The notes beneath the pieces are model-generated. The model had not been told where the DNA came from, ran no database searches, and saw only the letters and a program-made list of their open reading frames with translations. A program made the position numbers and the translations under genes. Below are positions 1,343 to 34,614 of a stretch of 64,000 nt of DNA, in pieces. The stretch spans positions 24,858 to 88,857 of the forward strand of contig JAFGTR010000136.1 in assembly GCA_016934055.1 (NCBI GenBank), read 5' to 3'. Positions within the stretch are counted from its first letter, which is position 1, and every line of letters starts with the position of its first letter. Origin of the DNA: Bacteroidales bacterium. GTDB taxonomy: Bacteria; Bacteroidota; Bacteroidia; Bacteroidales; UBA10428.

Positions 1343-2182
1343 ATGACGGTAACGGATCAGGATTTTCAGGTTTTTGTTTTTGCTCTCAAAAGCACATCAC
1401 GCTATGATTTCAGTCAATATTCGGAAAAATCGTTAAAGAGAAGACTTTTTAAAGTTCTCACTGATCATAAAATGAGCATGAACACGCTCATTTCCCGCAT
1501 TAAAGCCGACTATGCATTTGTTGAACAGGTGGTAAAAGAAATAACCGTAAACACCACGGAGCTTTTTCGCGATCCCCAGGTTTGGCAGGCATTACGTTTT
1601 TCAATCCTGCCCCGGTTCAAAAACAATACTGTAATCAACATCTGGCATTCGGGATGTTCAACGGGACAGGAGGTTTACTCCATGCTGATACTTCTTCACG
1701 AACTTGACCTTTTTGACAAGGCTAAAGTATATGCAACCGATATCAACACCGATGTCATTGAAGCAGCCAAAACAGGCGAATACAAATATCGGTTCAATAT
1801 AGCCTACCTTGATAATTTCGATAAGGTCATCAAGGAAAATCCTTATAACTATGAAGAATACAATGATGTGCCATACAACAAGTATTTCGATATTGATAAG
1901 ACAAACGATATTATCAAAATGAAAAGTTTCCTCCGGGAAAAGCCGGTTTTCAAAAAACACGACCTTGTGCTGGATAACAACACGCTGTATGTTAAGTTTG
2001 ATCTTATCCTCTGCAGAAATGTTATCATATATTTCAACTACGATTTGCAGAACAGGGTTTTTGAATTATACCATCAGAATCTTTATGAAAACGGCTGTAT
2101 GGTGTTGGGTTTGCACGAAACCATTTTAGGACTGAATGCTGCTAAATTCACAAAAAAGGGGCATGCTTATTATAAAAATTAA
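1343..2182 (+). CDS. cheR: Protein-glutamate O-methyltransferase CheR (motifs intact)
   Basis: YDFSQYS..SLKRRL, TVNTTELFRDP, IWHSGCSTGQEVYS, YATDIN, FDLILCRNVIIYF. Confidence 0.93.
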   Translation: MTVTDQDFQVFVFALKSTSRYDFSQYSEKSLKRRLFKVLTDHKMSMNTLISRIKADYAFVEQVVKEITVNTTELFRDPQVWQALRFSILPRFKNNTVINIWHSGCSTGQEVYSMLILLHELDLFDKAKVYATDINTDVIEAAKTGEYKYRFNIAYLDNFDKVIKENPYNYEEYNDVPYNKYFDIDKTNDIIKMKSFLREKPVFKKHDLVLDNNTLYVKFDLILCRNVIIYFNYDLQNRVFELYHQNLYENGCMVLGLHETILGLNAAKFTKKGHAYYKN

Positions 2183-2192
2183 CAGTGTTGGT

Positions 2193-2200
2193 TAAATTTG
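2193..2200 (+). promoter_or_regulatory. Bacteroidota sigma70 -7 box (TAAATTTG), putative internal promoter
   Basis: Matches TAnnTTTG in the gap upstream of the gene at 2289. Confidence 0.45.
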
Positions 2201-2288
2201 AAAGCATAAAGGCCGTTATTGATTTTTTTTGCTATAAATTTAGTGATGGTATAAAAATGATTGTTTACCTGAGTGAAATTACAGATTA

Positions 2289-4499
2289 ATGAAACATGAG
2301 GCTGTTACAAAATATGAACCCATGAAGAAATTATCGGCCATACCCAAAAAGCTTTATTATTTTTTCCTGATTCTTATATTGTTCTCAGTGACCATAGTGA
2401 TTGTGCTGTCAATCCTTCATCTGCACATCAGAAAAATCCATTCAGCTGAAAAGCAACTTTTACAGATAAAAGAAAAGATTGAAACCATAAATGCACGGCA
2501 TTATGAATATCTTGCTCTTGTGCTATATGGGAAAAATGATGACCAGGACATCTTTCATTATGCTGACCGGAATATGGACGATGTCCTGTTTAAGCTGACC
2601 GACTTAACCGGGCAACTTGCGGGTCATCGAGTGCTTCGAAAAAGAACTGATGTTTCTGCTTCACTTGAAACATTCAACACCGCAATTTCAGATTTTTCAG
2701 GTTTCATCACCGCTGTTATGTCCTCAATAAAGGAAAGAGGAAATATGTCTGAGGGTCTGATTTCAGAATGGTTCAGGCAGGCAGGAGAAATTGAGGTCAA
2801 CGGTGAAGAAATCGGCCAGGATTTTATTACTGGTCTCGAAAAAGTCAGAGCCCTGCAGTCAGCTTATATATTAACAAACAACAATGCCCTTATTGATGAA
2901 TTAAATAATCTTTTAATAAGCCTTCAAAGTCAGTTGCCAGTTGATGATATGGTCAATCCGGGCAAATTTGATGCCTTGTTGCAGCTCACTGCCAAAATCC
3001 TTGCCCTTAACAACAGAATAGGATTCTCCTCTCATCAGGGAGAACTTCCTGTTTATTATCAGCATTATGAAACCCTGAAGTCCAATTTCGAAAAACTGGT
3101 GGTTCTCATTAATGAAAACCTTAACCGGGCCACATTCTCAGCCTCATTGCTCAGTTATGGTCTTATTGTTTTGCTGTTGGCCGGCATGTTGCTTCTGGCC
3201 TATATTTTTCTTGACAAAAGTATTTTACGCCCTCTCATTGTCATCGGACAATTTGTCAACAGGCTTTCATCGGGTATGATCCCTGATGATTCTCTGACGA
3301 TCACAGAATCAGGCGATCCCGGAGGTATATCAGAACCGCTTAACAAGCTGGCCAAAGGATTAAAAGAAAAAACCGATTTTGCCAGAGATCTTAATCAGGG
3401 CCATTATTCCACCAAACTCGAACTGTTAAGCGATAAGGATGATCTTGGGCTTGAGATGAAAAAACTGCAGGAAAATATTATCTCTTCATCTGAAGAACAG
3501 GATCGCTATAACGAAGAAAATGCAAAGCGCAGATATATCAACGAAGGTCTCGCCAGATTTGCCAATATATTGCGGTTAAACAGCAATAACCTTGATAATC
3601 TTGGAGATGCCTTCATCCGTGAACTGGTAAAATACCTCAATGCCATTCAGGGTGGATTTTTCATGGTTGATGAAGAAGATAAGGAAAAGCCAGTCCTCAG
3701 ACTTGCAGCAGCCTTTGCTTACAACAGAAAGAAATATCTAGAAAAAACAATATTACTGGGAGAAGGACTGGTCGGCACCTGCGCCATTGAAAAGAAGACT
3801 GTTCATTTGACAGAAATGCCCCGCGGATATATTTTGATCACCTCCGGACTTGGTGATGCGCCGCCCGATAATCTTTTGCTGGTGCCTGTCATGCATGAAG
3901 AAGAGCTTATAGGTGTGCTGGAGATAGCATCATTAAATAAGTTCAGCGAACATGAGATTGCTTTCACCGAAGAGGTAGCCAGCAATCTTGGTTCAACAAT
4001 AGTGACAACCCGTATTAACCAGCGTACATCTGAGTTGCTTGCCAAATCACAACAGCAGGCACAGGAAATGGCCGAACAGGAAGAAGAAATGCGGCAAAAC
4101 ATGGAAGAGCTTAAAGCCACACAGGAAGAATCTTCCCGACGGGAAGAGGAGTTCAGTGGCATAGTTGATTCATTGAACTTGTCGGTATTCATAATAGAAT
4201 ATGATCTTGACGGAACGATTTCTTACATTAATAACAAATTCCTGCTGTTCATCAACAAAAAAAGCGAAGAGCTCATCGGCAAGACACATCCATATGTTTT
4301 TGGCGTTAATTCAGTTGTTGATTCTAAATTCTGGGCCCAGCTGAGCAACATGTCCAATACTACTGTTGCGGAAGATCTCAGCGTAGGAAAAAAAATATAC
4401 CGGATAAAGGAACATTTTTCGCTGGTTATAAACAAAGACGGGCTGCCTGTTAAAGTGTTGAACATCATGACAGAAATCCCCGGCAAAGAGACAACATAA
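2289..4499 (+). CDS. Membrane sensor: 2 TM, periplasmic helical domain, HAMP-like, GAF, Glu/Gln coiled coil, PAS; no output domain
   Basis: Two hydrophobic segments; ILRPL..HAMP; GAF motif AFAYNRKKY..GEGLVGTCA..ITSGLG..LLLVPV..GVLEIAS; QQQAQEMAEQEEEMRQNMEELKATQEE; C-terminal PAS (IEYDLDGTISYIN). Start may be 2322. Confidence 0.82.
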   Translation: MKHEAVTKYEPMKKLSAIPKKLYYFFLILILFSVTIVIVLSILHLHIRKIHSAEKQLLQIKEKIETINARHYEYLALVLYGKNDDQDIFHYADRNMDDVLFKLTDLTGQLAGHRVLRKRTDVSASLETFNTAISDFSGFITAVMSSIKERGNMSEGLISEWFRQAGEIEVNGEEIGQDFITGLEKVRALQSAYILTNNNALIDELNNLLISLQSQLPVDDMVNPGKFDALLQLTAKILALNNRIGFSSHQGELPVYYQHYETLKSNFEKLVVLINENLNRATFSASLLSYGLIVLLLAGMLLLAYIFLDKSILRPLIVIGQFVNRLSSGMIPDDSLTITESGDPGGISEPLNKLAKGLKEKTDFARDLNQGHYSTKLELLSDKDDLGLEMKKLQENIISSSEEQDRYNEENAKRRYINEGLARFANILRLNSNNLDNLGDAFIRELVKYLNAIQGGFFMVDEEDKEKPVLRLAAAFAYNRKKYLEKTILLGEGLVGTCAIEKKTVHLTEMPRGYILITSGLGDAPPDNLLLVPVMHEEELIGVLEIASLNKFSEHEIAFTEEVASNLGSTIVTTRINQRTSELLAKSQQQAQEMAEQEEEMRQNMEELKATQEESSRREEEFSGIVDSLNLSVFIIEYDLDGTISYINNKFLLFINKKSEELIGKTHPYVFGVNSVVDSKFWAQLSNMSNTTVAEDLSVGKKIYRIKEHFSLVINKDGLPVKVLNIMTEIPGKETT

Positions 4500-4530
4500 A
4501 AGCGGTTTTAAAAACATTTTGCACAGACCA

Positions 4531-5361
4531 ATGACTGAACTAGGAATTGTTGACATAAGAGAAATTATCAGAGCAATTAAAAGCATATACAATTACGACT
4601 TTGGAAATTATGCACTTACTTCTTTTAAACAAAGACTTGAGAGACTCATTATCCGGAACAATTTAAGCAATGCTGAAAGCCTGATAAAAAAACTGAGGGA
4701 TGAACCTGATTTTTTTGACATTTTTCTGCATGAGATTTCCGTCCCTTCTACTGAAATGTTCAGAGATCCCTCACTGTGGAGATGGCTTAGGGAAGATCTG
4801 CTGCCTTCTGCTATTGAAAAATGTGTGGGTCAATATAAGATATGGTTGCCGCACTGCGTTTCCGGTGGCGAGCTTTTCACTCTGATGATTGTATTGTCTG
4901 AATTAAATTTGATGGATAAGGTCAGTATTTTCGCATCTTCAATCAGCGATAAAAGCCTGGAGATTATCCGGGAAGGACAGTATGACCTGAAAAAGATCGA
5001 AGTCTCAACTGAAAATTATATTCGCGCAAACGGAACTGCTGCTTTTATGGATTATTACAAACTTGACCGGTATTATGCCTTCAGGGATCCTGCACTCATC
5101 GCCAATGTTGAATTCAATAAACTGAATATCAGTTTTGATAATGCCCCAACAAATATAAAGCTCATCTTATTCAGGAACAACCTGATTTATTATAATCCGG
5201 GTATGCAGGACCGGATATTGTCAGTATTGAATAACAGCCTATCAGCTACCGGTCATCTGATAATAGGCATAAAGGAAAGAATAACAGGTGTTAGTTCTGG
5301 CAAAGAGTTCGAGATTACTAATGAAGCTGAAAGTGTGTATAAAAAACGGATTATTGGTTGA
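4531..5361 (+). CDS. CheR-family protein with degenerate SAM-binding motifs
   Basis: YDFGNYALTSFKQRL and STEMFRDP are retained, but IWLPHCVSGGE and FASSIS replace the canonical IWSAGCSTGEE and ATDI. ATG at 4531 preferred over TTG 4519. Confidence 0.85.
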   Translation: MTELGIVDIREIIRAIKSIYNYDFGNYALTSFKQRLERLIIRNNLSNAESLIKKLRDEPDFFDIFLHEISVPSTEMFRDPSLWRWLREDLLPSAIEKCVGQYKIWLPHCVSGGELFTLMIVLSELNLMDKVSIFASSISDKSLEIIREGQYDLKKIEVSTENYIRANGTAAFMDYYKLDRYYAFRDPALIANVEFNKLNISFDNAPTNIKLILFRNNLIYYNPGMQDRILSVLNNSLSATGHLIIGIKERITGVSSGKEFEITNEAESVYKKRIIG

Positions 5362-5366
5362 GTATA

Positions 5367-5927
5367 ATGAATTATAAAGCAGTTATAATCGGTGGTTCTG
5401 CGGGAAGTTTCCAGGTGGTTACAAAGATACTGAGTTCCCTGCCAAAGACCTTTCCTGTTCCTGTTATGCTATGTCTTCACAGATTGAAACATGTCCGTTC
5501 AGGATTTGTTGAAGCGCTATCACTGAAATCCAACATACCTATTGAGGAGCCCTATGATAAAGACCAGTTGAAACCCGGCAGGGCTTATCTGGCGCCTGCC
5601 AATTATCATTTATACATTGAGCTTGCAAACCGGGTTGCCCTTTCCACGGAAGATGTTGTAAACCATTCCAGGCCATCCATTGATCTCTCATTGATAACCG
5701 CTGCCAATGCCTATCGCGAAAAACTTATCGGGATAATCCTTTCGGGAGCCAATAAGGACGGGGCCTTTGGCCTTAAAAAAGTACACGATTGCGGCGGTGT
5801 TACAATTGTACAAGATCCTAACGAATGTGAAGTGAAAACAATGACGACTTCTGCCCTGCAACTTACAAAAGCAGATTTCGTATATACCACTGACCAGATT
5901 ATCAGGTTTCTGCAAAAAATCAATTGA
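5367..5927 (+). CDS. cheB: CheB-type methylesterase, catalytic domain only
   Basis: IGGSAGS (Ser), CLHR (His), APANYHL, SRPSID, LSGANKDGA (Asp), IVQDP; no receiver domain. Confidence 0.92.
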   Translation: MNYKAVIIGGSAGSFQVVTKILSSLPKTFPVPVMLCLHRLKHVRSGFVEALSLKSNIPIEEPYDKDQLKPGRAYLAPANYHLYIELANRVALSTEDVVNHSRPSIDLSLITAANAYREKLIGIILSGANKDGAFGLKKVHDCGGVTIVQDPNECEVKTMTTSALQLTKADFVYTTDQIIRFLQKIN

Positions 5928-5931
5928 ACCG

Positions 5932-6726
5932 ATGATGAACCTTCAAAAATACAGGCGATTTATAATTGTGACTTTTCTTGTTATCGTCATTTCCGCCATC
6001 CTGACCCTGGCCGCTGTCTGGAATTCCATTCTGAGCAGCGAGGACATCAGGAATGAAGGCTGGATATTCGTATTCTTCTTTTTGTTAATAGCAGGCAGCG
6101 TTGTTCTTTTCTATTTTTCTTATAATCTCTCCGATTCAGTTGCCTTTGAAGATACTGTTAACAGTCTTGTTACAGCTGAGAAAGAAAAGCTGATCAAAAA
6201 AATGGAAGAAAGGAAAATGAAGGAAAAAGAGACATTACTAGAGGATGAAGATTTTAAAAACAGAATTGACCAGGTTTTTGCCGGACTGCAATCGGTTAAG
6301 TCAATTGAATCATTTGCCAACAAAGTATTGATGAATATTTCCAGGCAGGTTGAAATTGTTCGTGGAGTCTTCTTTTTTAAAGAAGACAAAAAAGACCTTT
6401 TTAAATGTATGGGCGAATATGCCCTCACCGGCAAAAAACCCGAACCATTCAAAACCGGGGAAAACTTAACAGGTCAGGTTGCAAAAAGTAAAACCCTGAC
6501 AAGCATTGAAGAAATTCCGGAAGACTATTTCAGGGTTGAATCAGGCTTGGGTGTCACTTTACCAAAGCATTTGATAATCTTTCCCTTGGTATTTGAAAAT
6601 AAAACATTGGCGGTCATCGAACTGGCAACTTTTAAAAAAATAGATGCTGTACAGTTCAAAATTTTAAACGCCTTAATTTCAGATTTAGGAGAAAGATTGA
6701 ATAAATTTGTTACTGCAAAAAAATGA
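5932..6726 (+). CDS. Membrane protein with 2 TM, coiled coil and GAF domain
   Basis: Two TM segments, then GAF motif GENLTGQVA..IPEDYFRVESGLG..LIIFPL..AVIELA. Confidence 0.8.
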   Translation: MMNLQKYRRFIIVTFLVIVISAILTLAAVWNSILSSEDIRNEGWIFVFFFLLIAGSVVLFYFSYNLSDSVAFEDTVNSLVTAEKEKLIKKMEERKMKEKETLLEDEDFKNRIDQVFAGLQSVKSIESFANKVLMNISRQVEIVRGVFFFKEDKKDLFKCMGEYALTGKKPEPFKTGENLTGQVAKSKTLTSIEEIPEDYFRVESGLGVTLPKHLIIFPLVFENKTLAVIELATFKKIDAVQFKILNALISDLGERLNKFVTAKK

Positions 6727-9347
6727 TCGTGGAGGAAAATAAGAAAACCACAATTAGTCAGATATTATCAACCCAGGTGATATGGCAGGCACTGATTGCC
6801 GGATCCCTGTTTCCCCTTATTTCCTGGGTTGTGGAGATCATCCGGATGCATGTATCATTTACATTTTCAGGTCTTTATCAAATTCATAAAAACAATCCCG
6901 TTTTATGGATCATGGATTTGATCCCCCTGCTTGTGATCGGTCTGGCATATATCATTGACAGGAAGCGCAAAAGTGAAAAACAAATATTTGACGAGCAGAT
7001 TAACGAGCGTGATGCCAGGCTTAATACAATGGCCGAGTTTTCAAAACAAATCGGAGAGGGCAATTATAATGTGGACCTTGATGTCACCAGCAGTCAGGAT
7101 TTCTTAGGCCATTCCTTACTTATGATGCGTGATAATCTGCTTGCCAATCATAAAAAGGAATCAGAAGAGAACTGGATTGCAGCCGGAAAAGAGAACATAT
7201 CCGAAATACTGCGGATACATAATAAAATAGAAACCCTGGCAGATCAGGTCATTGCCATGTTGGTCAACTATGTCGATGTTGTTCAGGGCGCCATGTATAT
7301 TTTCGATGAAGATAAAAAGGTGCTTTTCAATGTAGCCACCTATGCATATAACCGGAAAAAATACATCACACAGGAATTCAGGCTTGGTTATGGTCTGATC
7401 GGGCAATGTGCCTACGAAATGGAATACATTTACCGTACAGAGATTCCTGAAGACTACGTATCAATTACCTCAGGAATACTGGGAGATCAGAAACCACAAA
7501 GCATATTACTGATCCCTTTAATATCCGATGAAAAACTGCAGGGCGTTTTGGAATTTGCTTCTGTCAAAGCCGGCATCCCTGAATTGACGATCCGCTTTCT
7601 TATAGAACTTGGAGAGATCATTGCCCGCACCGTCTTTAATCTTAAAGTCACTCACCGCACTGAACAGTTGTTGAAAGAATCACAGGAAATGACCATTGAA
7701 CTGCGTGAGAATGAGGAACAGCTGCGTCAGAATGCTGAAGAGATGCGCGCCACGCAGGAAGAGCTGAAAAAATCAAATGAGCAGCTCGAATCAAAGGTGC
7801 TGGAAGTGGAGAATGCTCAAAAACGTTTGTATTCATTACTTGAAAATGCTTCCGAGGTCATCTCCATTTATGATGAAAACATGGTTCTTGTCTATGAAAG
7901 CCCCTCCGTAACAAAAATATTGGGATTCACACCTGAAGAAATGATGGGAGGTAAAGACATGGACAGGTTAACGCGGAAAGGGGAAAATTCCATGCGCAAT
8001 ATGTTTAAACAACTGTTGGAATCGCCCGCTGAACCGGTATCCATTCAATACACCTACATGAAAAAGAACGGTCAGAAGATATTTCTTGAAACAACCGGCC
8101 GAAATCTTCTGGAAGATCCGGCTATTAAAGGTATTATACTGAACTCCACCGACATCACTGAACGGAAAAGAGCTGAAAGGGAAGAGCGTCTTAAGAGTAA
8201 GATGCAGTCTTTGTCTGAAAACTCGCTTGATATGATTATCCGCCTGAGTACCGTTGGTCAGTTTTTCTATGCTAATCCGATGGTGGAACACTTTTTGGGA
8301 ATCGAACCCAAAGAGCTTATTAATAAAACGCTCAATGAGATTGAAATATCAGATGTCCTCTTCAACTATTTCAGGGAGACCATTGATGCCATTAAAGCAT
8401 ATCCCAATAAAACCAACCATGAATTAACTGTACCGGCGGTGTTTGATAATGTTCAATGTGAGCGCATCATGAGTTTTGCCGCCATTCCGGAATTCAATGA
8501 AAATGAACTGGAAACCATCCTCTTTGTCGGACATGATATAACAGAGGCCAAACAAATTGAACTTGAGATCCAGGACAAAAACCGTAAAATTGAAGACTCC
8601 ATTAATTATGCCCAGCGCATTCAAACTTCGATTCTTCCTGATATCAGGATAGTCAGGGAATCACTGCCCAAATCATTTATCTATTATAAGCCCCGGGATG
8701 TTGTCAGCGGAGATTTCCCATGGTTCTTCCGGAGAGGGGATGAGATTTTCATCGCCGCTGTTGATTGCACAGGTCATGGTGTACCGGGTGCACTGCTTTC
8801 CTTTGTCGGGTATTTTCTCCTCAACAGCATAGTGGATCACGAAAGAAAGCTTTCAGCTTCAGAGATATGTGATATGCTGCATTTTGGTGTTCGAAAAACC
8901 CTTAAACAGGAACTGGAAGATGCCGAAGCCCGTGACGGGATGGATATAGCATTTTGTAAGATCAACCACATCAATAAAGAAGTGCAGTTTGCCGGAGCTC
9001 ACAGGCCCCTTTATCTCTTACGGGACGGTGAACTCACCGAATTTAAAGGAGACCGGAAAGCTATCGGAGGAATTCCCCACAGGAAAAAAGAAGAAGAGAA
9101 TTTTACCAACTATATTATCAATTATAAACGGGGAGACAAGATATTTTTCTTTTCTGACGGATTACCCGACCAGCTTGGCGGACCTGAAGACAAAAAGTAC
9201 TCTCCAAAACGCATCCGTGAAATAATTTCAGAAAATAATACCATTCCAATAGAAAAATTTAGTAACCTTTTTGCCTCTGATTTCGAAAAATGGAAAGGAG
9301 ATGGAAAGCAAATTGATGATGTTTTATTAATTGGCATAGAATTTTAA
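6723..9347 (+). CDS. Membrane GAF-coiled coil-PAS-PAS-SpoIIE/PP2C Ser/Thr phosphatase (SiaA-like role)
   Basis: TM segments; GAF (YAYNRKKY..GYGLIGQCA..ITSGILG); two PAS (YESPSVTKILGF, YANPMVEHFLG); PP2C motifs PRDVVSGDF, DCTGHGVPGA, DGMD, FSDGLPDQLGG, QIDDVL. Confidence 0.9.
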   Translation: MIVEENKKTTISQILSTQVIWQALIAGSLFPLISWVVEIIRMHVSFTFSGLYQIHKNNPVLWIMDLIPLLVIGLAYIIDRKRKSEKQIFDEQINERDARLNTMAEFSKQIGEGNYNVDLDVTSSQDFLGHSLLMMRDNLLANHKKESEENWIAAGKENISEILRIHNKIETLADQVIAMLVNYVDVVQGAMYIFDEDKKVLFNVATYAYNRKKYITQEFRLGYGLIGQCAYEMEYIYRTEIPEDYVSITSGILGDQKPQSILLIPLISDEKLQGVLEFASVKAGIPELTIRFLIELGEIIARTVFNLKVTHRTEQLLKESQEMTIELRENEEQLRQNAEEMRATQEELKKSNEQLESKVLEVENAQKRLYSLLENASEVISIYDENMVLVYESPSVTKILGFTPEEMMGGKDMDRLTRKGENSMRNMFKQLLESPAEPVSIQYTYMKKNGQKIFLETTGRNLLEDPAIKGIILNSTDITERKRAEREERLKSKMQSLSENSLDMIIRLSTVGQFFYANPMVEHFLGIEPKELINKTLNEIEISDVLFNYFRETIDAIKAYPNKTNHELTVPAVFDNVQCERIMSFAAIPEFNENELETILFVGHDITEAKQIELEIQDKNRKIEDSINYAQRIQTSILPDIRIVRESLPKSFIYYKPRDVVSGDFPWFFRRGDEIFIAAVDCTGHGVPGALLSFVGYFLLNSIVDHERKLSASEICDMLHFGVRKTLKQELEDAEARDGMDIAFCKINHINKEVQFAGAHRPLYLLRDGELTEFKGDRKAIGGIPHRKKEEENFTNYIINYKRGDKIFFFSDGLPDQLGGPEDKKYSPKRIREIISENNTIPIEKFSNLFASDFEKWKGDGKQIDDVLLIGIEF

Positions 9348-9374
9348 TGAAAAAAAACAAAAATTAATAATACA

Positions 9375-9956
9375 ATGAACAATAAGAAGGATGTAAAAGG
9401 CTTTCTGGAATTTGTTTATGAATTCTATAAATCAATGAAAGCCCATGAGATTACCTTGATTTATGAAGGTGAAATAACGCATCAGATTACAAAAGCATTT
9501 ACTTCTCTGACAGAATCAAACATGTCAAAAGACGATGAACCAAATTCAGTTCAACGGAAAGTATTTCATGTGATGGTTGAATGCTTGCAAAACATCAGCA
9601 AACATGCCGACGATTTTACATCCAGTGATTACCTGTTTTCGGGCAGAGGCATTTTCCTGGTGAGCAAGGGAGACAATGAATACAGTGTTACAACCGGTAA
9701 TGCTGTAGAAAATGACAAAATTGAATACCTCACTGAACTGCTTGAAAACATCAATAAGATGGAAAAAGATGAGCTGAAAGAATTATACAAAAGACAGATG
9801 AAAGAAGGAAGACTGTCTGAAAAAGGCGGAGCGGGACTGGGCTTTATCGACATTAAAAGAAAAACCGGCAAGGAACTGGAATATCATTTTCTTCCCATTT
9901 CCGACGATACATCTTTCTTTTTACTAACTTCAACGATTTCTAGGTCTGAACTTTAA
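9375..9956 (+). CDS. SiaB-family (GHKL-like) Ser/Thr protein kinase
   Basis: LIYEGEI, VMVECLQNISKH (N-box), TTGN, GGAGLGFIDIKRKTG (G-box); lies between a PP2C gene and a SiaC-like gene. Confidence 0.85.
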   Translation: MNNKKDVKGFLEFVYEFYKSMKAHEITLIYEGEITHQITKAFTSLTESNMSKDDEPNSVQRKVFHVMVECLQNISKHADDFTSSDYLFSGRGIFLVSKGDNEYSVTTGNAVENDKIEYLTELLENINKMEKDELKELYKRQMKEGRLSEKGGAGLGFIDIKRKTGKELEYHFLPISDDTSFFLLTSTISRSEL

Positions 9957-9968
9957 AATGATTAATAT

Positions 9969-10346
9969 ATGGAAACAATCAAAATTCAAGGAACTGAAGA
10001 TACTCCTAAGATAATCCTGGATGCAGAAAATGAAATAATGGAAATTTCAGGACGGTCATTGCCTGAAGACGTTTCTTCATTTTATGAACCTGTGATTAAC
10101 TGGCTGAATGAGTATGCTGAGAATCCAAATAAAAAAACCATTATTAACTTTAAACTCACATATTTTAATACAGCCTCATCCAAACTCTTGCTTGATATCC
10201 TTATGAAACTTGAGGAAATGCATGAAAAAGGCCATGATGTGCTGATCCGCTGGCATTATCCCGAAGATGATGAGGATATGGAAGAAGCCGGAGAAGAATA
10301 TGCCGATATTGTGGATGTTCCTTTTGAACAGGTTGCATATTCGTGA
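9969..10346 (+). CDS. SiaC-family (DUF1987) phospho-acceptor protein
   Basis: TEDTP, ISGRSLPED, FYEPVINWL, LTYFNTASSK (phospho-Thr motif), WHYPEDDEDMEEAGEEY. Confidence 0.9.
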   Translation: METIKIQGTEDTPKIILDAENEIMEISGRSLPEDVSSFYEPVINWLNEYAENPNKKTIINFKLTYFNTASSKLLLDILMKLEEMHEKGHDVLIRWHYPEDDEDMEEAGEEYADIVDVPFEQVAYS

Positions 10347-10394
10347 TTACAGAACATACTGAATTCAACAACCCGTACAATAATTCTCATCTGA

Positions 10395-13300
10395 ATGAGT
10401 GAAGAAGTTCTCAGAGCCTTAATGCAGCTGTTTGCCATCATTGCCAAGCAGGATGAAGGTGTTGAGCAAACGCAGATGGAATATGTGAAGAATTTCCTGC
10501 AGCAACAGCTGAATGATGAAGAGGTCAAGGAATACTTCTCTCTTTTTGAACAATATGCGGGTTTAAGCGACACCAACGAAGAATCTGAAAACGAAGAGGA
10601 TAAAGGAACCCGCAAACTGACTTCCGTAAAGGATTCAGTCCGCATACTCGGGTTATGCAAAAAAATAAACAAAACCCTGACACAACGCCAGAAAGTGGTT
10701 GTTCTTGTGCGTTTATTCGAAATTATCAATGCCGACCGTAAGTTTACAGATCAACGCATGCAAATTGTCAATACGGTGGCTGATGTGTTTAAGGTTACCA
10801 AAGAAGAATTTGCCGTTATTGAGTCCTTTGTCATAAAAAACGAAGCCGAAGAACTTGATGATATCAACTTCCTTATTATTAACGATAAACCTGTTCATCC
10901 CCGTTTTGCAAAAAAAATACACACAAAACAACTGAATGCGAACATTTTTATTTTGCGTATCAATACAGTTGATCTTTACTTCCTGAAATATACCGGGAAT
11001 GAGGATTTGTTTTTAAACGGGCTTCCTGTCAGAAATAATCGCATATATCTGTTTGCAAACGGCGGTACGGTTAAAATGCCAAAAGCTGCTCCGGTATATT
11101 ACAGTGATGTCGCCTCCCATTTTCTTGCCGACACCGTGGCAAGTCAGATATCTTATACAGCAAGAGACCTTGAATTTAAGTTTCCAAACGGCAATATCGG
11201 CATCCGTGATGTCAGCTTTTCTGAAACCCATGGTCGTCTTATCGGCATCATGGGCGCCAGTGGGGCCGGTAAAACCACCCTGCTCAATGTTCTTTGCGGT
11301 ATCGAAAAGCCTTCAAAAGGAGAGGTGATCATAAACGGCTTTGATCTGCATAAAGAGAATGACAGGCTTGAAGGCGTCATCGGTCTGGTTCCCCAGGATG
11401 ATCTGTTGATTGAAGAACTTACTGTTTTTCAGAATCTTTATTTTAATGCCAAACTCTGCTTTAAAGATAAATCAGAAACCGAGCTTACCGAATTAGTGGA
11501 TAAGACCCTCCAGAATCTTGGCCTTTTCGACAGAAAAGATCTGAAAGTGGGTACGCCGTTGAAAAAAACCATCAGCGGTGGTCAAAGGAAAAGACTGAAC
11601 ATTGCCCTTGAGCTGATCCGCGAGCCTTCCATTCTCTTTATTGATGAACCGACTTCAGGATTATCATCAAGAGATTCGGAAAATGTGATGGACTTATTAC
11701 GCGAACTAACCCTTAAAGGAAAGCTTATCTTCGTGGTTATCCATCAGCCTTCGTCAGAAATATACAAGATGTTCGACAAAATGATCATCCTTGATACAGG
11801 TGGTTACCAGATTTATTATGGCAATCCTGTGGAAGCGGTGATGTATTTCAAAAGACTTGATGCACAGATCAACAGCGAAGTTGGCGAATGCCCTACCTGT
11901 GGTAATGTAAACCCTGAATTGATCTTTAACATTATCGAAGCCAAGGTGGTGGATGAATTCGGAAATTACACCGATGCCCGGAAGGTCACACCACAGCAGT
12001 GGGATGAGCATTACCATCACCTTATACGGTATAAAGAAGTCCCGACTGTTGAGACCTCACCGCCCAAAAACCTGCGCATACCTTCCTGGTTCAGCCAGGT
12101 GTGGATCTATTTTGTCCGTGACTTCCTCTCCAAGATCAGTAATCGTCAATATATTGCACTGAGCATGCTGGAGGCCCCCATTTTAGGCTTTATGCTCTCT
12201 TATATTATACGGTATTTCGAAGATCCTAATTCCAGCATCTATATATTCAGGGTCAATGAGAATATTCCCATTTTTATTTTCATGTCCCTGATCGTCGCTC
12301 TTTTCCTGGGATTGACAGTTAGCGCCGAAGAGATATTCAAGGACAGAAAAATATTAAAGCGGGAAGGCTTTCTTAATCTGAGCCGTTCCAGTTATCTGGT
12401 TTCAAAAGTTGCAATCCTGTTCCTCATTTCCGCTATCCAGTCTTTTCTTTTTGTGATCATTGCCAATACAATCCTTGGTGTTAAAGACATGTATTTCGTA
12501 TACTGGCTGGCGCTTTTCTCCACAGCTGCTTTTGCCAATATTCTGGGACTGAATATCTCTGCCACATTTAATTCGGCTGTGACCATTTATATCCTTATTC
12601 CACTGGTTATGATACCTATGATGATCCTGAGCGGTGCCATGTTCAGTTTTGATAAACTTAACCGCACCATAAGCCGCATCGACAAGGTACCGATAATCGC
12701 AGAGTTTATGGTGACCAAATGGACTTATGAGGCCCTTATGGTACATCAGTTTAAAGATAACCAGTTCATGTCATATGACAAATCCCGCATTAAACTTTAC
12801 GACCTTGAAAAGGTTGAAAGCCAATCCGATTTTAAAAAAGTCTACTGGCTTCCTGAATTAACCGAAAGACTCGAGCGAGTAACCCGCGAGCTTGATAATA
12901 TTGAAATGGTAAGCGTAACCGCCGATGACCTGACGCTTATTGCCAATGAAATTGAAGCGGAATGCAAGATCAACAAGGATATTGCTCCATTCACAGAGAT
13001 GAACATGTTATCACCGGAAAAATTCGACAAGACCACGGCACAAAAAGTCCATGAATTCTTTGAAACCCTTGATAATTATTATGGAGAAAAATTTCAACTG
13101 GTCAGTCATCAGAAAGAAAACTATATTAATTTCTGGATGGAGAACAATCCTGACGGCTATACATTGCTGCGTGACAACTATCATAATGAAGGGGTTTCTG
13201 ATATTGTAAGGAAAGTCTATGAAAAAAACAAAATACTTGAATTTAATCAGCAATTGGTTCAGCATTATGATCCTATTTATCAGGATCCGATACCGGCAAG

Positions 13301-13487
13301 CCCGGTAAGTATCCGCACCCATTTCTATTCACCGGCGAAGCCATTTCTTGGTAAAACATTTGATACTTACTGGTTCAACATAACAATAGTATGGATTCTG
13401 ACACTGCTGTTCTATGTTATTCTTTACTTTGACGGATTAAAAAAATTATTAACCTTTACAGAGCGTTTTAAAAAGAAAAATAAATAG
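10395..13487 (+). CDS. ABCG-type (NBD-then-TMD) ABC exporter with TerB-like N-terminal domain
   Basis: Walker A GASGAGKTT, PQDD Q-loop, ISGGQRKR signature, FIDEPTSGL, VVIHQPS; about 6 TM segments C-terminal; helical N-terminus LMQLFAIIA..IINADRKFTDQ. Confidence 0.88.
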   Translation: MSEEVLRALMQLFAIIAKQDEGVEQTQMEYVKNFLQQQLNDEEVKEYFSLFEQYAGLSDTNEESENEEDKGTRKLTSVKDSVRILGLCKKINKTLTQRQKVVVLVRLFEIINADRKFTDQRMQIVNTVADVFKVTKEEFAVIESFVIKNEAEELDDINFLIINDKPVHPRFAKKIHTKQLNANIFILRINTVDLYFLKYTGNEDLFLNGLPVRNNRIYLFANGGTVKMPKAAPVYYSDVASHFLADTVASQISYTARDLEFKFPNGNIGIRDVSFSETHGRLIGIMGASGAGKTTLLNVLCGIEKPSKGEVIINGFDLHKENDRLEGVIGLVPQDDLLIEELTVFQNLYFNAKLCFKDKSETELTELVDKTLQNLGLFDRKDLKVGTPLKKTISGGQRKRLNIALELIREPSILFIDEPTSGLSSRDSENVMDLLRELTLKGKLIFVVIHQPSSEIYKMFDKMIILDTGGYQIYYGNPVEAVMYFKRLDAQINSEVGECPTCGNVNPELIFNIIEAKVVDEFGNYTDARKVTPQQWDEHYHHLIRYKEVPTVETSPPKNLRIPSWFSQVWIYFVRDFLSKISNRQYIALSMLEAPILGFMLSYIIRYFEDPNSSIYIFRVNENIPIFIFMSLIVALFLGLTVSAEEIFKDRKILKREGFLNLSRSSYLVSKVAILFLISAIQSFLFVIIANTILGVKDMYFVYWLALFSTAAFANILGLNISATFNSAVTIYILIPLVMIPMMILSGAMFSFDKLNRTISRIDKVPIIAEFMVTKWTYEALMVHQFKDNQFMSYDKSRIKLYDLEKVESQSDFKKVYWLPELTERLERVTRELDNIEMVSVTADDLTLIANEIEAECKINKDIAPFTEMNMLSPEKFDKTTAQKVHEFFETLDNYYGEKFQLVSHQKENYINFWMENNPDGYTLLRDNYHNEGVSDIVRKVYEKNKILEFNQQLVQHYDPIYQDPIPASPVSIRTHFYSPAKPFLGKTFDTYWFNITIVWILTLLFYVILYFDGLKKLLTFTERFKKKNK

Positions 13488-13527
13488 TTAAATACTTACA
13501 GATTTTTTATAATTTTATTCTGATCGT

Positions 13528-13535
13528 TAACTTTG
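13528..13535 (+). promoter_or_regulatory. Bacteroidota -7 promoter box TAACTTTG
   Basis: Exact TAnnTTTG, ending 25 nt upstream of ATG 13561. Confidence 0.6.
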
Positions 13536-13560
13536 TGTAAATATTCAAATTGTAAGAATT

Positions 13561-14463
13561 ATGATTAAAAGGCTGGTCTATTTTTTGTTAGCTGTATTGA
13601 TAATCAGTTCATGTAAATCAGGGGGTGATCGTACTGCTGACTCCGATTTTGAGATTCCTGATTCCGTCTTAACCGAGGGATTGGAGATCTCTGAAGAGAC
13701 AATGCAAAATGTTGTGCAGAATATTTCTTCCCCTGTTGAAATGGCTGCTTTAATCAAAGAGCTTGGTGTTCCATACTCCAATAAATATTTATCATCTACT
13801 GCCAGGGTCGGTAAACTGTCGACCAATTTTCAGCAATCGCTGAATCTTGGTATATATGGTGCCGATCTGGGCTATCTAAACATGTATAACAAAACATCAG
13901 CTGTGATTGATTATATATCAGCCATAAAAACCCTGGCTGATGATATCAAAGTCGGGCAGTTTTTTGATTTTACCACATTAAAACGTTTGGCAACCAATAA
14001 TCAGAATCTTGATTCACTGATGTATATTTCCGTGCACAGTTTTAATCAGATGGATAAATACCTCCATTCCAACAAACGAAGCAACCTGAGTGCACTTATC
14101 ATAACCGGTGTATGGATCGAAGGGCTATATCTGGGGACACAGGTCGCTAAAGAAGCTCCTAACGACCAGCTGGCTGAAAGAATTGGCGAACAAAAAATTA
14201 CGTTGAATGAACTGATTCTTATACTTGAAAATTTTAAGAATGACAAACAATACGCTAAGCTGATCCGTGAACTTTTGCTTATCAAGGAACAATACAAGGA
14301 TGTTGTCATTAGAATTGAAAAAGGAGAACCTCAGATGATCGAAGAAGATGGCATGCTGACCATTGTTCAGAACGATAAAAGTATTATTGAGATCAGTCCC
14401 GAACAATTAAATGGCATTATTATCACAACCGAAAAAGTCCGTAACAGGTTAATCAGCTTATAG
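13561..14463 (+). CDS. Hypothetical lipoprotein
   Basis: Signal peptide with lipobox LIISSC; helical body containing LNLGIYGADLGY and ITGVWIEGLY. Confidence 0.8.
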   Translation: MIKRLVYFLLAVLIISSCKSGGDRTADSDFEIPDSVLTEGLEISEETMQNVVQNISSPVEMAALIKELGVPYSNKYLSSTARVGKLSTNFQQSLNLGIYGADLGYLNMYNKTSAVIDYISAIKTLADDIKVGQFFDFTTLKRLATNNQNLDSLMYISVHSFNQMDKYLHSNKRSNLSALIITGVWIEGLYLGTQVAKEAPNDQLAERIGEQKITLNELILILENFKNDKQYAKLIRELLLIKEQYKDVVIRIEKGEPQMIEEDGMLTIVQNDKSIIEISPEQLNGIIITTEKVRNRLISL

Positions 14464-14465
14464 GT

Positions 14466-14906
14466 ATGAAAAACATAAAGTTCATCATTTTATTTCTTGT
14501 CTTGTCCTGTGCCTTTTCACTTCGTGCCCAGGATATTTCACAACTAACAGCACAATGTGCCGCCAATGCCGGCGACGTAATGTATCTTAAAGATTTTGTC
14601 GTAAAACTTGATGCCGGAACTCCCGGTGGAGCACCGCCTACTGCAAGATTTGCCTTACTGTTGAGCAAAAGTGTCGTATACAGATTCTCAATCTGCACGG
14701 CACCAAATTCTGAAGGGGAAGCTGTTTTACAACTTTTCGATATGAACACCCTGTTGGGAAGTACATTTATTACCGCTACAGGTAAAGATTTCCCGTTTTT
14801 TGATTTCAAATGTCAGAAAACAGGCGTATACCATGTGTTCATTTCATTCAAAGAAGGCAAAGCAGGTGAAGGTGTTGGTGTCCTTTCGTATGTGAAAAAA
14901 CTCTGA
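14466..14906 (+). CDS. Exported hypothetical protein (Cys-containing, beta-rich)
   Basis: Signal peptide ending SLRAQ; 2 bp after the previous gene. Confidence 0.78.
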   Translation: MKNIKFIILFLVLSCAFSLRAQDISQLTAQCAANAGDVMYLKDFVVKLDAGTPGGAPPTARFALLLSKSVVYRFSICTAPNSEGEAVLQLFDMNTLLGSTFITATGKDFPFFDFKCQKTGVYHVFISFKEGKAGEGVGVLSYVKKL

Positions 14907-16373: not shown

Positions 16374-19300
16374 TTAACACAGCTTAAATTCAATCTCCGG
16401 ATTTTGAAATAAAAAATCAACAAACTCATCTGACAATTCAATATGTTTTGAACGGGAAAACAGATCAACGGCAATGTTCTCGGTAACATCAACCAGCGTG
16501 ACTTTCAGGTTGATATTACCTTTCCTGCCCTCAGTAAAAGATTTCAACTTATCAAGGAGGTTCTCTGAAAGCTCATCGAGAGGCAGCCGTAACTGAATAT
16601 TTTTAATAAGTTCATCGCGTGCATTGCTCAACAAACAAATACTTTTTACCCGAAATTCCGGTTCCGGAGTACTCTTCCATGTGTTTTCCTGCACAGATCC
16701 TTTAATCAGCAATGAATATCCCTCATAAAGGTAATTCCTGAAATTTTCATAATCTTTTCCAAAAAATGTAAATGTATAAGTATCAGTATAGTCTTCCAAT
16801 GTAAATCCGCCATATGGCTTGCCGTTTTTGGCAATGGCATTCTTTACACTGGTTACTATTCCTGCTATTGTCAGATCCCTGCCTTTCTGGGATGATAAAT
16901 CACGCAATTCAGAGAGTGTGGCATTACAAAAATGATTCAGTTCAATCCTGTAGTTATCGAGCGGATGAGCAGACAGGTAAATACCAATTAATTCCTTTTC
17001 CTTGCTCAGTTTCACAAGTGCAGGCCATTCTTCTTCCTGTGATGGTTTTGGCTTGACCACCTGAACAGCTGACATATCACCAAACAATGTTTGGGTGACA
17101 TTTCCCTGGCTTTGCATCAGGTTACCGTAACGAATAAGCTGTTCGATAAAACTCATTCCGTTTTCATCCCTGGCAAAGAACTCATAGCGGGCCGGCTCAC
17201 CAAAACTATCAAAGCCGCCTGCCTGCGCCAGCGCCTCCAGACACCTTTTGTTCACAATGGTAAGGTTTACGCGTTCAACCACGTCATAGATGCTTTTATA
17301 TGGACCCGATTTCCGGCGCACTTCAAGGATGTGCTCCACAGCTGATTCTCCAACACCCTTTATGGCAGCCAGCCCAAACCTGATCTGACCGCTTGTGTTA
17401 ACAGTAAAATTTGAAAAGCTTTCGTTGATATCCGGCACCAGGACGGTAAGACCCATACGCCGGCATTCATCCATGAAAAAGGTAATCTTTTTTATATCAT
17501 TAAGATTACGGCTCAGAACGGCAGCCATAAATTCAGCCGGATAATGTGCTTTCAGATAAGCAGTCTGATAAGATATGTAAGCATAACAGGTTGAATGTGA
17601 TTTATTAAAAGCATAATGTGCAAAAGACTCCCAGTCCTTCCATATCTTTTCCACTACTTCCGGATCATGACCCCGCTGTGTGCATCCTTCCTGGAATTTA
17701 ACCTTAAGCTGATCCATCATTGAAACAATTTTCTTACCCATCGCTTTTCGCAAGGAGTCAGCCATCCCTTTTGAGAAACCGGCCAGCAATTGGGAAAGAA
17801 GCATGACCTGTTCCTGGTAAACCGTGATACCATAGGTATCCTTCAAATAAACCTCCATCAATGAAATGTCATATTCGATTTTCTCACGGCCATGTTTGCG
17901 GTTTACATAACTGGGTATATAATCCATAGGGCCCGGCCTGTATAAGGCATTCATGGCGATCAGATCTTCAAAACGGTTAGGCTTTAGTATTTTCAGGTAT
18001 TTCTTCATGCCATCTGACTCAAACTGAAAGAGCCCGGTCGTATCGCCACGGCTGTAGAGTTCATATGTTAAGGAGTCATCCAGGGGAATGGCATTGATAT
18101 CAACATCGATATTTCGCGATATTTTAACATTCAGTATTGTATCTTTAATAATAGATAATGTCTTCAGACCCAGAAAATCCATTTTAAGCATGCCAACAGA
18201 TTCAATATGAGAACCGTCAAATTGCGTAACATTTAACTCGGCATCTTTATTCCGGCATATCGGAATATATTCTTCCAGATCGTCTTTACCGATGATGATA
18301 CCACAGGCATGAACCCCCGTTTGCCTCACAGAACCCTCCAGAACTTCAGCATATTTTAATGTACTTGTAACCTGTTCATTTCCGCTTTCACGTTCCTGTA
18401 AAAGCATTGGTGCCTTTTCATAAGCATCCCTGAATGAAATGCCGGGAACCTCAGGAACCAGTTTGGCCAGCCTGTCGGCTTCCTGCAACGGCAGCTTCTG
18501 TACACGGGCCACATCGCGGATAGCCATTTTCGGTGCCATGGTGCCAAAAGTAATAATATGGGCAACCCTCTTTTCGCCATATTTTTTAACAACATATTGC
18601 AATACTTTTTCCCGGCCGTCTTCATCAAAATCTATATCGATATCGGGCATTGATATCCGGTCAGGATTAAGAAAACGCTCGAAAAGAAGATCGTATTTTA
18701 TAGGATCAATATCTGTAATCCTTAAACAATAAGCCACAACTGAACCGGCAGCAGAACCCCTTCCCGGTCCCACTGACACATTCATTTCACGTGCTGCCCT
18801 TATCACATCCCAAACAATAAGAAAATATCCGGGAAAACCCATTTTTCTGATTGTATCAAGTTCAAATTCAATACGTTCTTTGACCTTTTCATCAAGTACG
18901 GTATAACGCTGGGCAGCACCTTCATATGTCAGATGCCTCAGGTATTCGTTGCTGTCAGCAAAACCCTCAGGAATTTGAAAATCAGGCATAATGGGGTCAC
19001 TGTTAAGCTCATAAGTCTCAACTTTATCAACAATTTCATTTGTATTGATAATGGCTTCCGGAATATCAGCAAACAAGGCCTTCATCTCCTGCTGTGTCTT
19101 CATCCATTCCTGATGTGTATACCTGAGCCTGTCGGGATCATCAATATCCTTTCCGGTACTGATACACAACAAACGGTCATGGGCATCAGCATCTTCTTCA
19201 TTGATGAAATGAACATCATTGGTAGCCACCACCTTCGTGCCGGTTTCCTTCGCAAGCTTCAGCAACCGGGTATTGACAAAAACCTGATCCTCATATACTT

Positions 19301-32207: not shown

Positions 32208-32278
32208 AATGCAATCTTTCAGTTCATGATTATGAATTTTAATGAAAGATTTCGTAATTTAAATTTTTATTAAATGCT

Positions 32279-34078: not shown

Positions 34079-34089
34079 ATATAAAAGCC

Positions 34090-34614
34090 ATGCCAATCAT
34101 CAAAGAGGAATACCAGCAGAACTGCCTTCTGACCTATCAGGGCCCTATTACGGTCAACCTCGTATCCTTTCTCGGTAACTATATCAAATCGTTTATCGAA
34201 TACGACACCAAAGTGCTTGTAAGATTATTCAAAATATACATTGAATTAACCCAAAATGTTTCTTACTATTCATCTGAAAAACAGCAGGTTAAAAATGGTG
34301 TCAATTGTGGCGTTGGTTGGTTTACAATACAGGAATCGGATGATTCATTCAGAATCACCACCGGTAACAGGATACTTAAATCAGACGGAAAAAAGCTTAC
34401 GCAATACTGTAACGAAATTAACCAGCTCAATGAAGAAGAACTGCGTGATTTAAAAAGAAAGACAAGGGCCCAGGCGATGGTGAGAGATGTTGGTGCTCAT
34501 ATTGGATTAATTCAAACCAGTCTAACCAGCGGAAGCCAGCTTGATTTCAAAATTGATCCCGTTGACAGGCTGCATTCCTTCTTTACCATTTCAACAAAAG
34601 TTATGAAACAATAA
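34090..34614 (+). CDS. SiaB-family kinase-like protein (divergent G-box)
   Basis: LTYQGPI, IELTQNVSYYS, TTGN, GAHIGLI; paralog of 9375-9956. Confidence 0.78.
   Translation: MPIIKEEYQQNCLLTYQGPITVNLVSFLGNYIKSFIEYDTKVLVRLFKIYIELTQNVSYYSSEKQQVKNGVNCGVGWFTIQESDDSFRITTGNRILKSDGKKLTQYCNEINQLNEEELRDLKRKTRAQAMVRDVGAHIGLIQTSLTSGSQLDFKIDPVDRLHSFFTISTKVMKQ

Follow-up and report, generated by a model that had tools for sequence, protein, structure and literature searches.

The methylation of glutamate residues by CheR, and its reversal by CheB, is the textbook memory device of chemotaxis, where it is normally tied to chemoreceptors and CheA. Some chemosensory pathways have an alternative output, among them the Wsp pathway of Pseudomonas, and Rv1747 of Mycobacterium tuberculosis is an ABCG-type exporter with N-terminal FHA domains that is controlled by Ser/Thr phosphorylation. 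Stage-1 F7 chemosensory clusters are reported to carry anti-sigma antagonists and a serine phosphatase (Ortega et al. 2020, PMC7184735). In the SiaABCD system of Pseudomonas aeruginosa, the phosphoprotein SiaC binds the stalk of SiaD through residues Y65, N67, T68, S69, I71, M75, L107 and E110, and phosphorylation of Thr68 blocks binding (PMC8457831). Here we describe a cluster in which genes of several of these kinds stand side by side: eleven co-directional open reading frames (ORFs) at positions 1343-14906, plus strand, of a 64,000-nucleotide stretch of a Bacteroidales genome, which we call the window. They encode two CheR proteins, a CheB, two sensors (S1 and S2), a SiaA-like receptor phosphatase, a SiaB-family kinase, a SiaC-family phosphoprotein, an ABC transporter, a lipoprotein and a small secreted protein.

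Our reading of this cluster, to which we give a probability of about one half, is that it is a single operon in which a receptor-phosphatase adapted by methylation would set a SiaC switch, and SiaC in turn would control an exporter.

Gene content and conservation of the cluster

The genes, and two segments within them that matter to the argument, are as follows. Pfam domain matches were taken at E <= 0.01, and transmembrane (TM) segments and the signal peptide come from a hydropathy scan; protein lengths are in amino acids (aa).

1343..2182, plus strand: cheR1, canonical CheR methyltransferase, 279 aa (Pfam CheR and CheR_N, CheR E 1.7e-34)
2289..4499, plus strand: S1, output-less sensor, 736 aa (Pfam GAF and PAS)
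4023..4148, plus strand: Glu-rich coil of S1, residues 579-620, with EELKAT at 606-611; proposed methyl-accepting helix
4519..5361, plus strand: cheR2, degenerate CheR paralogue, 280 aa, TTG start (Pfam CheR and CheR_N, CheR E 1.6e-23)
5358..5927, plus strand: cheB, methylesterase domain alone, 189 aa (Pfam CheB_methylest E 5.2e-48)
5932..6726, plus strand: S2, TM-TM-linker-GAF, 264 aa (Pfam GAF_2; two TM segments)
6723..9347, plus strand: SiaA-like receptor phosphatase, 874 aa (Pfam GAF, two PAS and SpoIIE/PP2C)
7656..7781, plus strand: Glu-rich coil of the phosphatase, residues 312-353, with EEQLRQNAEEMRATQEEL at 331-348; proposed methylation site E339/E340
9375..9956, plus strand: SiaB-family protein kinase, 193 aa (DUF6272, PF19788, E 1.2e-42)
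9969..10346, plus strand: SiaC-family phosphoprotein, 125 aa, Thr68 codon at 10170-10172 (PF09345 E 1.7e-43)
10395..13487, plus strand: TerB / FHA-like / ABCG-type transporter, 1030 aa (Pfam TerB, ABC_tran and ABC2_membrane)
13561..14463, plus strand: lipoprotein of an uncharacterised Bacteroidota family, 300 aa (outside Pfam and NCBIfam; Cys18 conserved)
14466..14906, plus strand: small secreted protein, 146 aa (signal-peptide-like N-terminus; outside Pfam)

In the sequence of events that we propose, the SiaA-like membrane receptor-phosphatase would sense a signal, probably with the help of output-less GAF-coil sensors, S1 being one and others being encoded elsewhere in the genome. Glutamates of the coil would be methylated by CheR1 and demethylated by the receiver-less CheB, which would reset receptor output as in chemoreceptors, with no methyl-accepting chemotaxis protein (MCP), CheA or CheW taking part; CheR2 would probably act as an adaptor, and S2 may tether or regulate CheR and CheB. 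A phosphate on Thr68 of SiaC would be added by SiaB and removed by the PP2C domain of the phosphatase. Regulation would then run through the unphosphorylated form, which would dock via its Thr68 face onto the TerB-like domain of the transporter and so switch export, a process in which the lipoprotein and the secreted protein would take part as envelope partners or as putative cargo.

Successive genes are separated by 106, 19, -4, 4, -4, 27, 12, 48, 73 and 2 nucleotides (nt), the negative values being 4-nt overlaps of cheR2 with cheB and of S2 with the SiaA-like gene. The run is flanked by a divergent nitroreductase gene upstream and by a convergent DUF6427 gene right after the last stop codon. 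A scan for promoters and terminators listed no terminator-like intergenic site inside the eleven-gene run; the scan was at background for promoters (47 sites against 40.4 +/- 7.6) and for terminators (16 against 12.0 +/- 3.3), and revealed no sub-operon structure. In a metatranscriptome of the same study there are one identical 158-nt contig (13200-13357) and four short unlike pieces, which is unusable as evidence for transcription or for an operon. Near-identical pieces spanning the whole stretch are present in three DNA runs of other samples, two of which come from other studies.

A sequence-only reading of the window had described this run of eleven tightly spaced co-directional genes at the same coordinates, and ORFs, Pfam and NCBIfam bear it out. 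Its gene anatomy is correct, because the domains agree, DUF6272 is the SiaB family, and SiaB and SiaC both match the solved structure 6kko. Its interpretation, in which methylation would tune a PP2C phosphatase in an adapting partner-switch system, is also supported, the methylation of the phosphatase being still putative. An anti-phage defence role was considered and dropped: PADLOC matched the transporter to generic ABC-ATPase entries only, and none of the nine further proteins scanned had a match.

Conservation of the cluster was followed from CheB, a search for which gave 64 loci in species-representative metagenome-assembled genomes labelled Bacteroidales, Salinivirgaceae or Marinilabiliales, with CheB identities of 49-97%. 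In 45 of the 47 loci that have at least 9.5 kb after cheB, the genes for S2, the phosphatase, SiaB, SiaC, the transporter, the lipoprotein and the secreted protein follow in order, the two exceptions being L076, whose phosphatase match is fragmentary, and the distant L119. Both cheR genes are found in 50 of the 53 loci with enough upstream DNA. Because an S1-sized gap separates them in only 37 of these 50, S1 being missing from the other 13, we regard S1 as optional and the remaining genes as the core. Beyond these loci, three class-level relatives (family f15) carry cheR-cheB-S2-phosphatase (1119 aa)-SiaB-SiaC-transporter-lipoprotein, and G243, a genome of the same order, carries the full set, directly abutting a chemotaxis cluster. 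The expectation of the sequence-only reading that gene order would be kept in relatives is therefore upheld by the neighbourhood survey. Within a sample of 401 genomes of the phylum, SiaC itself occurs in 24.

The exception L119 has at 9167-11285 the cheR-cheB-S2 trio only, followed by quinolinate phosphoribosyltransferase and other housekeeping genes, an arrangement that suggests S2 as the core partner of CheR and CheB. Elsewhere in that genome three coil proteins are encoded, one of which ends in a PP2C domain, and the prediction that coil proteins would be present there survived.

Methylation enzymes, sensors and the glutamate-rich coil

CheR1 aligns to the solved CheR 5ftw (E 3.6e-28) and keeps the motifs WHSGCSTGQEVY, ATDI and CRNVIIYF; among its orthologues the glycine-rich motif is present in 56 of the 57 rows tallied and CRNV.IYF in all 57. 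Compared with the same structure, CheR2 has WLPHCVSGGELF (CVSGGE) for CSTGEE, ASSI for ATDI and FRNNLIYY for CRNVFIYF, and its orthologues have ASS, ATY, ASC or similar at the ATDI site. Judged by sequence, the motifs that we take to form the S-adenosylmethionine site are thus intact in CheR1 and altered in CheR2. In overall similarity the single CheR of family f15 falls within the CheR2 lineage, yet its motifs are canonical. Given this, and given the motifs lost from CheR2, the latter appears to be a duplicate that ceased to be catalytic once CheR1 had arrived, and is probably a pseudo-enzyme or adaptor. The methylesterase domain of CheB (CheB_methylest, PF01339, 163.5 bits) spans residues 9-183 of 189, with no receiver domain detected by Pfam. 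Among the 68 CheB orthologues tallied, GGSAGS is kept in 66, CLHR in 61 and GANKDG in 68, these being the motifs to which we assign the Ser/His/Asp triad.

The possible substrates of these enzymes include, in the first instance, ordinary chemoreceptors. The assembly (4.54 Mb, 96% complete) contains about six MCP genes, three of them beside a second CheA/CheW set on contig C192, and contig C137 carries a full che set comprising CheY, CheA, CheW, CheR, CheD and a receiver-bearing CheB. As this genome has a full chemotaxis system, the MCP question was tested in relatives. Three of these (G359, G111 and G311; assemblies of 5-20 contigs with a listed completeness of 100%) lack any match to MCPsignal, CheW or GGDEF, and their sole CheB is that of the cluster; the substrate of CheB there therefore cannot be a chemoreceptor, and a substrate encoded within or alongside the cluster is the economical reading. 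The sequence-only reading had held that a full chemotaxis system whose MCPs are the substrates of CheR and CheB, together with a phosphatase unaffected by methylation, would tell against it: this genome does have a full chemotaxis system, and an MCP substrate is ruled out in G359, G111 and G311.

Whole-genome profile searches found no MCPsignal, CheW, HATPase_c (0 of 80 matches) or GGDEF on the contig of the window, and no GGDEF match in the genome as a whole. The absence of CheW, an MCP signalling domain, a histidine kinase and GGDEF from the window, as first described, consequently stands. The same description had included CheY, and here a qualification is needed, given that a receiver domain does occur, in a REC-PP2C protein at 31011-32207, and that a stand-alone CheY was not searched for as such.

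Two TM segments are predicted in each of S1, S2 and the SiaA-like protein. In S1 they lie at 25-43 and 290-308 and enclose a periplasmic region of ~245 aa, after which come a HAMP-like stretch, GAF (GAF_2, 433-571), the Glu-rich coil and PAS (621-691). The HAMP domain that had been assigned to S1 was not reproduced, no Pfam HAMP match being found at the threshold given above; HAMP is detected at the matching place in a paralogue and in the SiaA-like protein of a relative. The SiaA-like protein has the layout TM-TM, HAMP-like stretch, GAF (GAF_2, 169-302), Glu-rich coil, PAS, PAS and PP2C (SpoIIE/PP2C, 673-873). The NCBIfam SiaA model is its best match, at 157.8 bits over residues 608-872 only and under the equivalog cut-off of 700 bits.

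Directly after GAF, the same coil motif, of the form QEEELRQNxEELxATQEE, occurs in eight paralogues of the genome, namely S1, the phosphatase and six further GAF proteins, which share ten invariant columns. Residues 331-345 of the phosphatase have a mean column identity of 0.92 in 58 orthologues; of the consecutive 15-residue blocks printed, only that of the PP2C core, at 0.95, is higher. A profile of the coil matches 3441 cluster representatives among 1.84 billion at E <= 0.001. Across 522 distinct instances in the best 150 proteins, Glu makes up 93-97% of residues at profile positions 20-22 and 28-29, and positions 32-33 carry the small residues A/T. The acidic pairs of the profile, at 14-15, 21-22, 28-29 and 35-36, are spaced one heptad apart. 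Pair 28-29, which is the central pair E339/E340 in the phosphatase, stands in an EExxAT context, and this fits the methylation consensus of chemoreceptors, EExxA(S/T).

Coil proteins also have characteristic company. In a sample of 48 of them (every third of the 150, the two longest dropped), Pfam finds PAS in 46, GAF_2 in 39, PP2C in 6 and HAMP in 5, and the 25 commonest families shown include neither a kinase or cyclase nor an MCP signalling domain. Those of this genome and of family f15 have dCache, Reg_prop/Y_Y_Y or HAMP inputs, and the phosphatase alone has an enzymatic output. In the phylum sample, strong coil matches (best E <= 3.6e-15) occur in 5 of 401 genomes, which are exactly those found to have the cluster, and all of which have CheR; three further matches are weak (E 1e-4 to 6e-4). 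None of the strong matches falls in a genome that lacks CheR, and one of the weak ones does (G367, E 5.6e-4). It is important to note that this is a weak test of the link between coil and CheR, because CheR occurs in 229 of the 401 genomes (210 scoring over the cut-off).

Metagenome loci centred on the coil address the same link at closer range. Fifteen of 80, in a total of 0.88 Mb, carry cheR and/or cheB, in 13 cases as the immediate neighbour; the density of CheR in this genome (4 per 4.54 Mb) would lead one to expect ~0.8 in 0.88 Mb. The 15 loci are of two operon types, one like that of the window and the other, of which C137 has an example, with the order cheA-cheW-cheR-kinase-(cheD)-cheB and then a GAF-coil-PAS gene. 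From these patterns we infer that the coil is the best candidate for the substrate of CheR and CheB.

The cluster on C137 (19570-30089, L050) has the order cheY-cheA-cheW-cheR-kinase-cheD-cheB(REC), followed by a 767-aa GAF-coil-PAS-PAS protein and a hybrid kinase. The coil protein there occupies the usual position of the receptor gene, and no MCP was detected in that cluster; the arrangement recurs in 7 metagenome loci and in G243.

The SiaC switch and the transporter

SiaB scores 174.8 bits with NF038262, against a cut-off of 85, and matches chain A of PDB 6kko at E 1.5e-12. SiaC scores 147.5 bits with PF09345 (cut-off 24.5) and matches chain C of the same structure at E 2.7e-18, with the NT(A/S)S motif aligned; its score of 95.6 with the NCBIfam equivalog model, whose cut-off is 150, makes it a member of the same family and not an equivalog. 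Across 51 sequences there is no variation in the segment Y65-K72, which holds the Thr68 motif. BLAST recovers 14 paralogues of SiaC and 5 of SiaB from the genome, and Pfam recovers 10 of SiaC. Most of the SiaC copies stand alone, without an adjacent kinase or an obvious target.

The transporter begins with TerB-like helices (residues 1-154, 10395-10856) and an FHA-like beta domain (residues 159-227, 10869-11075), and continues with the ATPase domain, the ABC-2 membrane domain, an extension of ~200 aa and a last TM segment. TerB scores 32.5 bits against a Pfam cut-off of 24.4. ABC_tran covers residues 271-421 and ABC2_membrane residues 568-785; residues 270-756 align to ABCG1 at E 1.2e-39, the Walker A, signature and Walker B motifs are readable, and the nearest NCBIfam model, TIGR00955, is matched below its cut-off. 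The AlphaFold 2 (AF2) model of residues 1-262 has a confidence (pLDDT) of 87 and is helical over 1-154. The best PDB fold matches of the beta domain are FHA domains, and these are weak (best E 0.016, none at 0.001); Pfam finds no FHA family in the transporter at E <= 0.01, and the canonical Arg/His residues were not seen on reading the sequence.

A paralogous TerB-ABC protein, 44% identical over its full length, is convergent with a SiaC-SiaB pair on contig C116, and the same arrangement is found in G243. The N-terminal region of a third ABC paralogue, on contig C198, is different, since its alignment to the transporter starts only at residue 182, and there is no SiaC paralogue on that contig.

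A complex of transporter residues 1-262 with SiaC was modelled at an interface score (ipSAE) of 0.82 (0.83, 0.82 and 0.82 in three runs), the best of 3 controls reaching 0.00; the pLDDT of the partners is 92 or more, and the runs have 98% or more of their contacts in common. In calibration, the mark was reached by 58 of 80 solved complexes and by 2 of 110 mismatched pairs, figures that apply only roughly to the custom alignments used here. The modelled interface comprises SiaC residues 63, 65-72, 75 and 102-114 and transporter residues 75-86 and 120-131, and within the latter S81, V82 and L85 are invariant even in paralogues of 31-34% identity. The face that SiaC turns to TerB in the model is the one that grips the SiaD stalk. 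The model thus supports SiaC binding to the TerB domain.

GGDEF was searched for in five genomes with the cluster (the present genome, G000, and G243, G111, G311 and G359), and none of the five has a match. Together with the paralogous TerB-ABC gene beside SiaB/SiaC in two genomes and a complex model that passes its controls, this agrees with the suggestion of the sequence-only reading that the output may be export rather than cyclic di-GMP.

Of the last two proteins of the cluster, the lipoprotein keeps Cys18 in at least 90% of 51 sequences and is co-conserved with the transporter; the secreted protein is co-conserved at 35-93% identity. The AF2 model of the lipoprotein (pLDDT 78) is helical apart from a small beta sheet, and comparing its fold with the PDB gave no match at E <= 0.001.

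The window contains a second SiaABC-like set at 31011-35013, also on the plus strand. It consists of the REC-PP2C protein (31011-32207), a further PP2C protein (32279-34078), a SiaB paralogue (34090-34614) and a SiaC paralogue (34618-35013), with no cheR or cheB and no ABC gene after it. Just upstream of this set, at 28076-30718 on the plus strand, is a gene for an 880-aa protein with lamin-tail (LTD) and Big_5 domains. On the minus strand, 16374-20594 encodes a DNA polymerase III alpha subunit fused to an N-terminal RNase_T-type exonuclease, which we take as ordinary.

Alternative readings and related systems

Several observations weigh against the reading we prefer, and most of them concern methylation, which is its weakest link. 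The present genome and G243 have full chemotaxis systems, with which cross-talk is possible. No cheR or cheB is found in the DNA spanned by 65 of the 80 metagenome coil loci, and 3 of the 8 coil proteins of the genome adjoin such genes. Only one of the four acidic pairs fits the full consensus EExxA(S/T), and the core pairs are nearly always Glu, not the Glu/Gln mix typical of chemoreceptors; conservation of the coil could be due solely to its being a signalling helix that lies between GAF and PAS. The score of the SiaC-TerB complex may come partly from solved SiaC complexes with the same face that the model has learnt. As regards cargo, Protein Atlas searches with the lipoprotein and the secreted protein returned unnamed Bacteroidota clusters only, and so gave no lead. 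Lastly, S2 is tied to cheR-cheB more tightly than any coil gene and is the main unexplained part.

The gene that constantly accompanies cheR-cheB is that of S2 rather than one for a coil protein, so S2 may be the real substrate or partner. CheR and CheB would then act on another protein of the cluster, most likely S2, or be tethered by S2 and modify some other target, the coil being only a structural helix. S2 directly follows cheB in every variant of the cluster, including the minimal trio of L119 that stands before housekeeping genes, and it has a Glu/Lys-rich linker between its TM segments and GAF. However, the orthologue alignment shows no conserved residue and no conserved Glu-Glu pair in that linker, the GAF core alone being conserved, and the identity of S2 drops to 24-40% among the remoter relatives, the coil remaining almost unchanged; moreover, the L119 genome does encode coil proteins elsewhere. 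We consider this alternative unlikely. A quite different explanation is that cheR and cheB are spare adaptation enzymes for ordinary chemoreceptors that happen to lie beside an unrelated SiaABC-ABC module, as the MCP genes and two CheA/CheW sets of this genome, and the position of the G243 cluster against a chemotaxis cluster, might suggest. Yet the cluster persists in three relatives whose genomes lack MCP, CheA and CheW, the main chemotaxis cluster is supplied with a CheR and a receiver-bearing CheB of its own, and the genes are tied together by overlapping stop and start codons and keep their order at class-level divergence, all of which leads us to regard it as highly improbable.

The remaining alternative accepts the SiaA/SiaB/SiaC switch and disputes its target, which would lie in trans, the transporter, lipoprotein and secreted protein being merely co-transcribed or unrelated. 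It would account for the 14 SiaC paralogues found by BLAST, most of which have no obvious neighbouring target, and for other SiaB/SiaC loci of the phylum (L135-L137) that have no TerB-ABC gene, and it draws on the fact that a structure model of SiaC with TerB falls short of proof of binding. Against it, two paralogous arrangements, each kept in two genomes, place TerB-ABC next to SiaB/SiaC, whereas the C198 paralogue with its different N-terminus has no SiaC on its contig, and the SiaC-TerB model passes its controls with contacts on invariant residues. We would be somewhat surprised if it proved correct. Returning to the methylation-adapted receptor-phosphatase, a broader version of the idea is that GAF-coil proteins are a second, MCP-independent family of methyl-accepting receptors. 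Their sensors would be interchangeable (dCache, beta-propeller/Y_Y_Y, helical bundles, HAMP), joined to a shared GAF and Glu-rich helix; mostly output-less, they would be adapted by CheR, CheB and S2 and would signal together via the PP2C member, with phosphothreonine on SiaC as the currency rather than phospho-CheY, and an ABC exporter as the effector rather than a motor. This generalisation is tentative, and we lean against it in its full extent.

If the coil is methylated, sensory adaptation would have been moved onto a Ser/Thr partner switch, and the many orphan cheR/cheB genes of non-motile Bacteroidota would gain a testable substrate. Likewise, SiaC-type proteins, of which there are 14 copies in a genome with no cyclase, would gain in the TerB domain of an ABC exporter their first non-cyclase target, and TerB, as yet poorly understood, would be given a definite function in docking. 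The system seems amenable to study, given that its proteins are small or modular and that the genomes of several relatives are in 1-20 contigs and listed as 100% complete.

In the literature searched, which did not extend to subscription journals and supplements, nothing was found that links CheR/CheB with SiaABC, DUF1987, PP2C methylation or a TerB-ABC target. One of the closest described systems is SiaABCD of P. aeruginosa, whose gene order the cluster repeats: a membrane PP2C phosphatase, then a kinase of the SiaB family, then a DUF1987 SiaC that has the NT(A/S)S threonine. The cluster differs in that no SiaD or GGDEF protein is found in the 5 cluster genomes, the next gene being that of the TerB/ABCG transporter; in that the phosphatase has GAF, coil and two PAS domains before PP2C, and matches the SiaA model over PP2C only; and in that cheR, cheB and extra GAF sensors lie within the operon. 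With the F7 clusters it has in common CheR and CheB encoded with a PP2C-type phosphatase and a small switch protein, and a non-flagellar output. Both F7 and Wsp are, however, built on MCP, CheA and CheW and act via a response regulator, whereas the operon described here has no MCP, CheA or CheW, its CheB is receiver-less, and the candidate methylation helix is on the phosphatase itself. The transporter resembles Rv1747 in being a half-transporter with the ATPase before the membrane domain, with an N-terminal regulatory region that includes a candidate FHA-like fold and with a proposed control by Ser/Thr phosphorylation; it differs in that the FHA-like match is weak (E 0.016), a TerB-like domain comes first, and the proposed regulator is a phosphoprotein that would bind unphosphorylated.

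There remain the CheB-CheR fusion kinases of Bacteroidota, one of which, of 976 aa, is encoded in this genome (C72:13144-16074, L055) and has five overlapping EExx[S/T][S/T/A] matches after CheR, one heptad apart. Many genomes of the phylum have long frames of this sort with a CheR domain. The literature searched yielded no paper on what such fusion sensor kinases do, nor did it confirm that non-chemotactic cheR/cheB pairs beside GAF hybrid kinases are established, as the sequence-only reading had stated. Like the present cluster, the fusions place non-chemotactic methylation enzymes near a heptad-spaced Glu-Glu coil; unlike it, they join enzymes, coil and kinase in one polypeptide, where here the enzymes are separate, the output is PP2C and the coil motif is distinct, such that the coil profile misses the C72 protein. 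The parts of the signalling chain are of known families, and it is the wiring proposed for them that was not met with in the literature searched: CheR and CheB without MCP, CheA or CheW, a PP2C receptor that bears the coil, and SiaC put to work on a TerB-ABC exporter.

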